From Podarcis liolepis (Eukaryota): a stretch of DNA of 64,000 bases. Position numbers and translations under genes: made by a program. Below are positions 34,301 through 37,300 of the stretch, piece after piece. The notes below the pieces were generated by a model. That model saw only the letters and a program-made list of their open reading frames with translations. It was not told where the DNA came from and did no database searches. The stretch is taken from assembly GCA_965112155.1 (NCBI GenBank), contig OZ218100.1; one strand, written 5' to 3'. The stretch's first letter is position 1; every line of letters begins with the position of its first letter.

Positions 34301-37300
34301 TAACAGACTCAGCCTTAAAGGTGAGAGCTTTGCTGCCCACCCAGCACCACTTATCTGACAGAACATTAACTGGCTAACATAAATTGTATTAATCCATTTT
34401 GACTTCTGCTGCCCAAAGGCCGAAATGATTTAGTTTCTAACTGGGGCTGCTGAATCAATAGCTGCTGACATTTGAGGCAGTTATGATTTACTCCTGTAGT
34501 TTTTTTTGGTTTTTTGCCCTCTATGCCCAGTAAATGGGTTGTGACAACTCCACTCTGATGATTGTTTAAATACATTTATTTTCCAAAATGACTAACATTC
34601 TACCAAACAGCCACTGGTGCAACATACCCAGGAACAGTAGCAAAATAAGCAGAGCAGTCTTCAAGGTCCACAGAAAAGCTGTGGGAACTGTTAGGCATAG
34701 AAGGAAAGCTTTTGAAAGCTCCAAAAATATTTAACAATGAAGTAAACAGATGTATAACACTTTGCCTTACTTGTAATTCCTTTCCCAGAACTTCACTGGT
34801 CTGGCGTATGATGTGAGAAAAATGACACTCCCGAGAAATGGACTCAGCGGAGTAGAAAAGATTGCAGTGGCCAGAGTCTGAAAGAAGAGCATTGCCGAAT
34901 CTGAAAATTTCAAGTTAAGGTAACACAGATAAAGTCGCTGCCTTTTATGCTGTCCTTCGGGCACTTTCTGACCTATTTATCTTACTAACTTTCTCCACAA
35001 AGAGGCAGAAGCAAGGAAGTCTCACGGAAAAGATGAGAGTCACCATCATTCAAACTTACCTGACTTAGTTGTGTGTCTGTCATTTGTCCCCAGTGAATGT
35101 TATGCTATGGACAAGATTACTGACATTTATCCAAACTTTCAGTGTCCCTGGGCTTCAAATGCCAATTGGAAGAACGTTTTAGCTGAAGCTAAGCCCTTTT
35201 AGGTCTGACTGAGTTCAATGATAGAGCTCTAAATATATGCATAACTGCCTCATTGAAATCAACAGTACTTTGAAGTGTTTTTCTTTTTTATTTTACTTTG
35301 GCTACAGAGTCAGTGTGGTGCAGTGTTGGCGAGGTCCTGAGAGACCCGGGTTCAAATACTCCCTTGGCCATGAAGCTCCCTTGTGCCTAACCTCTCAGCC
35401 TAACCTACCTCAAACAGTTGTGGGAATTAAATGAGGAAAGGAAGAACCTTGAAATCTTTGGATTAAAAGATGGAATATAAATGCAATAAATAAAAAATAA
35501 ATGAATAATAGATTGGGCTGTTTGTCACTTGAATTAATTCAGGGTCCTGTGTCTAACATTTCTTCTTAATCTGTCATATATGAGCAACTTCTACTGTCAT
35601 AAATAACTAATATGCTAATGATTTTTTTTTCATCCATCTGTCTCAGGAGTGTGCCTTTGGGGGTGAAGCCAAACTGTTGGAAGGTTACATACAGTGCCTG
35701 CAGAGACTGATATGGGAGAGACATGTTTTCTTGGTAATTGAAGTAATAATCACATTTCAGCTTTTCTCCTAAGGCCTAATTAATCAAACGTTTGATGTTA
35801 TCTGCCGTTTCAGTAAATACTTATCAAGTATATATCTGGAACTCCTTAAATTTATTGAGAGGATGCTATATAATGATGTCTGTGCCTATTAGTGATTATG
35901 TGAGATGAGTTGCCCTCAGAGCCTCTCAAACCCAATGGAGAGGATATGGGGATGAAGGAAGTGTCAACAAAGTTCAGTTGCCATAATATTGTGGACTCGT
36001 GATTCATACTGGCTTGGAAGGACAGAAAGTCATTGCTGTGGAGTACGTGCAAGGAGCAAGAAAGGTAGAGAAACCAAAGAAGAGGGGTCGAGGAAGCCTC
36101 CTAAAGACTACTTCAAAATCAAAAGCATTACAAAAATATCTATGCACACTCAAAGGCAATGGAGGCACTCAATCCATGCATATATTCCTCTATAATAAAC
36201 AGGGAGAAAAAACGTAAGAGCTCTCATGCCGATAAGCAAATGGAGGACCTTGGGAAAAAGAAGGCCTACACCAGACATAGGCAAACTCGGCCCTCCAGAT
36301 GTTTTGAGACTACAATTCCCATCATCCCTGACCACTGGTCCTGTTAGCTAGGGATGATGGGATTTGTAGTCCCAAAACATCTGGAGGGCCAAGTTTGCCT
36401 ATGCCTGGGCCTACATCTTTAAGACCAGAAGGATCCCAGCAATAATCCAGCGAACAGACTTTCACGACTTCACTATAAAAATGTAACATTCATAGTAATA
36501 ACAACAACAATTATTATTGCTAATCTGATCTCTGTACTTCAGTCACTTTCTCTATTCCCAATTAATGACATAGAGGCAGTGCCACCAGTAGGGCTTCCAT
36601 TTCTGAAAATGTCGTATCAGAGTGATGAGATTAGCAGAGATTCCCAGAGAGTCTGGGAAAGTCTAAGAGTCACTGTCCAATTTCCTTATCTGTCCGAGAG
36701 CCAACAATACATTTTAGCCATTCTTACCTACATACTAGAGTGGCTTCTGAAGCAAAGCAGACTTTAAGTTACACACCTCACCGAAGAAGTAATAATGTCA
36801 CAAGCAATAATGAAATACATTTCTCAACTCATTGCTTTTTCTTATTTTTATCCATTTAATAATTTATATCCCACTTTTCAAAGTATTGTTCAAAGGATCT
36901 TTTTTAATATTGCATTTTCTCCCTCTGGGAATATCTATACTTTTTCTTCCAAAACTTTAACATAAAAAAAACTTTTCTTAATATAAATTGCCCAAGAACA
37001 CCCTGCTTTCCTTAACCCTCTGAATGCAGAACAAAATAGCAGGTACACTAAAAAGGATATGAGGTATTGCAAAGAGCTGAGCAAATACATGGAACGAAGA
37101 GCCCCAAGCAATCTGCCAAGGAGCAATATAGGTCAGAATGAACTGCAACTTTTGCAGGAGGTCCCACAGCTGAAAGCAAAAGAGTCAGAAAAGTTATGGC
37201 AGCGCATGTGAAAAGCACTTTTTTAAAAAAGAAAGAAAGAAAGCATTTCACCATATATATCCTATACAACACGCAATGTCCACGTACCTATATTACAATT

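Follow-up and report, generated by a model that had tools for sequence, protein, structure and literature searches.

The PCNX2 gene of the lizard Podarcis liolepis contains an intron that starts with AT and ends with AG. The questions raised by this locus are whether such an intron is a genuine member of the minor (U12-type) class, and how it came to differ from its orthologues at a terminal base. The window, which is the whole stretch of DNA analysed (64,000 nucleotides), was compared with sequencing contigs, related proteins and catalogued minor introns. It is likely that the intron is a conserved pecanex U12 intron carrying A in place of G, joined at AT-AG borders, in all likelihood removed by the minor spliceosome and derived from a GT-AG form by CpG decay.

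Splice signals and the RNA junction

The features of the locus, in window coordinates, are as follows.

1208..63179, minus strand: portion of the PCNX2 gene within the window, from 16 exon matches to lacertid PCNX2 proteins
37170..48453, minus strand: preceding intron, 11,284 nt, GC-AG (U2-type), its junction used in contigs X1 and X9
37061..37169, minus strand: upstream PCNX2 coding exon, 109 nt, phase 1 end, last base C, covered by spliced contigs X1 and X9
34901..37060, minus strand: U12-type intron, AT-AG, 2,160 nt, from motifs, spliced contigs and protein matches
37052..37060, minus strand: U12 5' splice site with A at +1, matching RTATCCTTT
37047..37048, minus strand: internal in-frame GT, 12 nt into the intron, unused in the two spliced contigs and used by some public lacertid models
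34914..34923, minus strand: U12 branch site, with candidate branch adenosines at 34916 and 34915 from the consensus
34901..34902, minus strand: 3' splice site AG, 13 nt past the branch box, with no long pyrimidine tract
34771..34900, minus strand: downstream PCNX2 coding exon, 130 nt, beginning with AT

A sequence-only reading of the window had assigned the gene to PCNX2, and the best protein matches are indeed named pecanex-like protein 2; among ten reptile proteins compared, that of Lacerta agilis is closest, and the upstream exon is 100% identical to that of Podarcis lilfordi, which marks the genome as lacertid-like. The reading had also placed a U12 5' splice site at 37060. The intron starts there with ATATCCTTTT (minus strand), directly after the exon end at 37061, and this border matches the U12 donor consensus RTATCCTTT as given in the available text of PMC1635337, the sole match within the 64-kb window. 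At the other end, the branch box CCTTAAC (34920-34914, minus strand) is followed by 13 nt that end in the AG at 34901, and TACCTTAAC at 34922-34914 differs from the branch consensus TTCCTTRAY at one position. The pyrimidine run before the acceptor AG is 5 nt at most, with no distinct tract, and no AC that could serve as an alternative acceptor is present from the branch box to 20 nt inside the next exon. All three properties had been claimed, and the spacing and lack of a tract agree with the U12 criteria stated in the available text of PMC3584512 (a branch-to-acceptor optimum of 11-13 nt and no distinct pyrimidine tract). With A at +1, the intron belongs to the A-type (AT-AN) minor introns. 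Neither motif is in excess over chance in the window: the donor pattern occurs once against 1.58 expected, and the branch pattern with AG 19 times against 24.5 expected. Both lie exactly on two conserved exon borders, for which the joint chance is about 2e-9 per given position pair, and it is this position, rather than the presence of the motifs, that chance does not explain.

The 109-nt exon separates the upstream major intron with GC-AG ends (48453-37170) from the AT-AG minor one. The 15 PCNX2 exon joins in the window, for which some acceptor positions are rough, comprise 10 GT-AG, 2 GC-AG (one tentative) and 1 AT-AG, with 2 others left unassigned. A second GC donor is located at 4713 (minus strand) in good U2 context. 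A run of 174 N at 37844-38017 lies inside the upstream GC-AG intron and has no bearing on the junction, and high-copy interspersed repeats, which we take to be SINE-like, are located at about 33700-34020 and 36270-36410 and attract thousands of reads and contigs.

The bases at 37060 and 34901 had been singled out for confirmation. Contigs of run X15, a DNA run that is possibly from the source sample, cover 34270-35674 and 36971-37366 with 0 differing letters, leaving both intron ends unchanged. A contig of run X18 (DNA, another species label) covers 36829-37197, with the 3' end of the intron outside its coverage, and shows no difference at 37060. An assembly error at the intron ends is unlikely.

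Spliced sequence joining 37061 to 34900 had been proposed as a check. Contigs X1 (study P1) and X9 (study P3) span 37059-37171 and then run straight into 34898-34869. They represent one contig each from two studies with two related-species labels, and contigs drop rare isoforms; the RNA nature of the X1, X9 and X11 runs is guessed, as none of the runs found to match the locus is recorded as RNA, but the X1 and X9 contigs skip two introns. The spliced junction at the AT-AG borders is thereby found in two of the three RNA-type contig sets examined over 36450-37210, X11 yielding no contig. The internal GT at 37048-37047 is not the junction in either spliced contig, which refutes its use as the main-isoform donor. 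Raw reads of RNA runs X21, X23 and X24 (6-12% sampled, repeat-dominated) gave 0 reads on the downstream exon and no junction, a result with no bearing on expression. Because the downstream exon starts with AT, three registers yield an identical mRNA: exactly three cuts, AT-AG, TA-GA and AT-AT, reproduce the spliced sequence, and each removes 2,160 nt. Judged by its motifs, only the AT-AG register preserves the U12 consensus and agrees with the GT orthologues. Removal of the intron at its borders is observed, to within this equivalent 2-nt register, in transcripts of close relatives. As the earlier reading had held from the border motifs, now joined by the spliced contigs, the PCNX2 AT-AG U12-type intron is confirmed as real in the P. 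liolepis genome.

Orthologues and the vertebrate distribution of A at +1

Two paralogues in the same genome, on C1 and C16, possess a U12 intron in the corresponding position, 401 nt and 741 nt in length and C|GT...AG in both; we take them to be PCNX1- and PCNX3-like. According to the accessible supplements, human PCNX1, PCNX2 and PCNX3 have U12 GT-AG introns with matching exon flanks (PMC8280824), and the mouse Pcnx2 intron is C|GT (PMC6717393). The comparison of terminal dinucleotides that had been suggested gives GT-AG in all three human genes, in mouse Pcnx2 and in both lizard paralogues. The lizard intron shares its position, phase, exon flanks, U12 donor and branch box with human PCNX2 (chr1:233090191-233095754) and mouse Pcnx2, and the human intron has an identical 13-nt spacing from branch box to AG. 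It differs in the +1 base, which is A in the lizard and G in human and mouse, and in length, at 2,160 nt against 5,564 in human and 6,409 in mouse. The intron is orthologous to catalogued minor introns (human and mouse PCNX2, human PCNX1 and PCNX3). The pecanex minor intron itself is already known and the AT form is a variant of it, and the direction of change at +1 was very probably from GT to AT.

The distribution of the variant was read from gene models and contig open reading frames that run into the intron, which give His where the exon-final C is followed by AT and Arg where it is followed by GT. The set comprised 490 proteins, from which correctly spliced models, models without an anchor and odd joins were left out, and the distribution rests on mis-annotated proteins, not on the DNA of those species. 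The HMMER search used the exon alone as query; His read-through queries were used in two of the three word-based searches, so His matches were possibly favoured. Reptile- and bird-type PCNX2 read-throughs have His in 40 of 40 cases, and A is present at +1 in all 23 named species (5 squamates, 1 crocodilian, 7 turtles and 10 birds), among them Podarcis lilfordi, P. muralis, Zootoca, Crotalus, Ophiophagus, Alligator and tinamous. Mammal-type PCNX2 read-throughs are divided: 6 of 22 have His, including five named rodents (Fukomys, Chinchilla, Microtus, Lemmus and Rattus), and 16 of 22, several of them near-duplicates, have Arg, including Myotis. The Rattus norvegicus read-through (XP_038954221.1, P0231) indicates AT, whereas mouse Pcnx2 has GT. 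The remaining pecanex read-throughs have Arg in 77 of 77 cases, including 17 of fish-like PCNX2 type, which are assigned to it by their resemblance to ray proteins that bear mixed names. Two models outside these counts, one from a penguin and one from a coelacanth (P0113), hint at A.

Eight proteins (P0350, P0352, P0353, P0355, P0360, P0366, P0416 and P0429) have read-throughs that imply donors departing from the U12 consensus after GT. Six are PCNX3-type with Thr after Arg, and two are invertebrate-type and resemble U2 donors, the latter representing possible U12-to-U2 conversions.

With A in every one of the 23 named reptile and bird species, and also in five rodents, the AT state looks old and recurrent rather than transient. 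The history that we favour, and consider fairly likely, is a single fixation of A in the reptile-bird ancestor, some 280 million years ago, and additional changes among rodents. The coelacanth model P0113, which is Ensembl-derived, carries an additional residue after His where the exons join, as would fit a 3-nt read-through of an AT start, and might place A deeper, in early lobe-finned PCNX2, with mammals back to G and some rodents having regained A. The proteins gathered are compatible with this in containing no amphibian read-through: ten clusters (seven amphibian, one coelacanth, one marsupial and one lacertid) include neither an amphibian nor a marsupial read-through, and a Xenopus exon query against shorter proteins returned four proteins, all already in the set and none amphibian. 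However, the number of changes that this deeper origin requires is about equal to that of the favoured history, the second coelacanth model is spliced correctly and hence uninformative on the +1 base, and the fish-like, presumably PCNX2-type read-throughs have Arg in all 17 cases. An origin of A before reptiles is rather unlikely, and fixation in the reptile-bird ancestor is preferred.

Gene models and the internal GT

The sequence-only reading had predicted that automated annotation might use a GT 12 nt inside the intron and add four codons. The GT at 37048-37047 is present and in frame, and four extra residues occur at the junction in Zootoca vivipara RefSeq XP_060128837.1 and Podarcis muralis UniRef A0A670HMG6, as predicted. 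In Podarcis lilfordi, the PCNX2 gene is split in two at the AT-AG intron (P0004 and P0217). The AT-AG intron explains a systematic annotation fault, namely spurious insertions in many of the PCNX2 models of reptiles and birds. A reading frame left open and one Zootoca RefSeq model that uses the GT would also suit a genuine minor donor for the major spliceosome, producing an isoform longer by four residues. This is improbable even as minor use: both spliced contigs join at the AT border, the short form is present in three older Zootoca models and in the Lacerta, Podarcis and Rhineura RefSeq models, and the GT is a weak U2 donor paired with an acceptor that lacks a pyrimidine tract.

Origin and persistence of AT-AG ends

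The donor is recognized by U11 and U6atac from position +4 onward and the branch box by U12; replacement of G by A at +1 would be tolerated for this reason, with the acceptor fixed by its distance from the branch. Both the donor core and the branch box being intact, the lizard intron should be read by the minor spliceosome just as the human one is, and its removal by this machinery is, from its signals, very probable. In the available text of the sources, the 3' base of AT-starting U12 introns is tolerant (PMC1635337) and acceptor choice is set by branch distance (PMC3584512).

The last exon base is C, which makes the ancestral junction of exon C and intron G a CpG, in which deamination would turn G into A at +1. 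The exon-final C opens a conserved His codon; G-to-A decay alters only the intron end, whereas C-to-T decay would alter the His. The PCNX2 protein product is unchanged by G-to-A at +1. The window is CpG-depleted, with an observed/expected ratio of 0.30. CpG deamination is a moderately likely cause of the change from GT to AT.

Other minor introns were examined for the same signature. C occupies -1 in 6 of 14 human U12 AT-AG introns. Among GTATCC donor strings it does so in 82 of 475 (p about 0.02), and among ATATCC donor strings in 52 of 206 (not significant, p=0.11), both baselines being string counts in a spreadsheet that include some branch-site matches. Among six minor introns that are GT/AT-discordant between species, picked from human AT-AG lists rather than by a full screen, there are five in which the AT species carries C at -1 (PCNX2, INPP5B, XPO4, SCN10A and ACTR10; p=0.004 without PCNX2); the exception, CCDC43, is a GT/AT switch without a CpG. 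In the human/mouse comparison, from which the CACNA1C row was left out as it shows another intron, 4 of 11 informative rows differ at +1, and 3 of these 4 have C at -1 in human (XPO4, SCN10A and ACTR10, not CCDC43). ACTR10 displays both decay products, with human C|AT and mouse T|GT. The INPP5B-family intron of the lizard (L008:7895-8007, G000:C7; 113 nt) is C|GT...AG, and human and mouse have C|AT (AT-AG); this locus was looked at once the CpG idea had been formed, and the GT-AG outcome was as predicted. A scan of 190 kb did not locate the TBC1D32 minor intron of the lizard, leaving one of two planned C|AT tests without result. As a general route across minor introns, CpG decay is suggestive from this small, selected set.

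CUL4B appears to have taken a different path. The lizard has a CUL4B-like minor intron (G000:C21 near 11,075,989, minus strand) that is AT-AT, 616 nt long, with A at -1, and a CUL4A-like minor intron (G000:C4 near 28,488,018, plus strand) that is AT-AC and 566 nt long, both names being provisional. CUL4B in the available tables is AT-AG in human and AT-AT in mouse (PMC1557818, PMC8280824). Since CUL4B lacks C at -1 and is AT-AT in the lizard, and CUL4A is AT-AC, CUL4B would have reached AT-AG from the 3' side. A further GTATCC match is present in the CUL4A-like locus.

The class itself had been called rare, which agrees with 15 of 770 human minor introns in Table 1 of PMC13602164, and 11 human and 8 mouse AT-AG U12 introns were catalogued in PMC1557818. 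PCNX2 is absent from these human and mouse lists, in the parts available, because it is GT-AG in both species. Natural AT-AG U12 introns (among them those of XPO4, ACTR10, NUP210, INPP5B, USP21 and CUL4B; PMC1557818, PMC8280824) resemble that of PCNX2 in combining AT-AG with full U12 signals and in having orthologues that differ at one terminal base. Unlike those listed, the non-canonical state of PCNX2 appears to be reptile- and bird-wide and recurrent in rodents. The available text of PMC1557818, PMC3584512, PMC8280824, PMC13602164, PMC7367187, PMC2831892, PMC10639083 and preprint 10.64898/2026.10.16.759739 does not mention PCNX2 in reptiles or a CpG route, and the accessible PMC11347168 supplement has no match to PCNX2 or AT-AG. 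No literature was found on a pecanex minor or AT-AG intron, the CpG route, or reptiles and birds in this respect, in a search with subscription papers, IAOD, MIDB and U12DB, where the chicken or rat state is possibly recorded, outside its scope. The PCNX2 AT-AG intron of reptiles is a newly described member of an AT-AG minor-intron class that is not new.

The sequence-only reading had suggested that the AT-AG form could be an intermediate in subtype switching, an idea already published in PMC1557818. Such switching involves a one-base change at an intron end between orthologues (PMC1557818, PMC2831892, PMC3584512), and PCNX2 shares this feature, standing one step from the ancestral GT-AG; that part of the suggestion holds. 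The papers, as far as their available text goes, regard AT-AG as a possible intermediate that is poorly spliced and offer no mutational cause, and a review describes it as disfavoured and poorly spliced (PMC3584512); by contrast, the PCNX2 data point to a stable state derived from GT-AG, mostly at CpG. A short-lived step between GT-AG and AT-AC, in either direction, would be in keeping with the changeable 3' ends of AT-starting introns at the CUL4 loci and with a site that flips inside rodents (rat A, mouse G). However, A is not confined to a recent, narrow lineage, being apparently kept, by the indirect readout, in every named reptile and bird sampled; in many models from birds and turtles an internal donor is joined to the usual acceptor, which suggests that AG is retained there; and no AT-AC version or descendant of the PCNX2 intron was seen, the 3' ends of other species being inferred from gene models. 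A passing intermediate is, on balance, improbable. Still less credible is a true cut shifted by 2 nt to AT-AT ends, or an A that is an assembly error: the three registers are indistinguishable in mRNA and AT-AT minor introns exist (9 of 770 in the available text of PMC13602164), but with the start moved by 2 nt the U12 donor consensus is lost, the register is fixed by the GT orthologues, and two DNA runs (X15 and X18) have the same base.

The comparative pattern, as read from proteins and catalogued introns, is probably old in reptiles and birds, recurrent in rodents and CpG-driven. More broadly, GT-AG minor introns with an upstream exon-final C may be CpG hotspots that repeatedly become AT-AG, with AT-AG persisting for about 280 million years and flipping in rodents, and AT-AG introns may form two classes, one reached by a 5' route from GT-AG at CpG and the other by a 3' route from AT-AC; the chances of this generalization are about even. 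It offers a simple mutational explanation of how GT switches to AT and casts doubt on AT-AG being a poorly spliced transient, and it has a bearing on the judgement of +1G>A variants in human minor introns, pairs of which are discussed in the available text of PMC13602164. A-type introns, AT-AG included, depend on CENATAC, with 92% of A-type and 24% of G-type introns affected (PMC8280824, available text). The PCNX2 intron is G-type in mouse and human and, on indirect evidence, A-type in rat and birds, and constitutes a natural experiment on what makes the two types of minor intron behave differently: as the intron of the same gene is G-type or A-type depending on the species, CENATAC dependence and splicing efficiency become directly comparable. 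If the CpG-hotspot reading is true, a difference of one base would place a gene under CENATAC-dependent splicing in certain lineages and not in others, and AT-AG minor introns would be two classes rather than passing intermediates.
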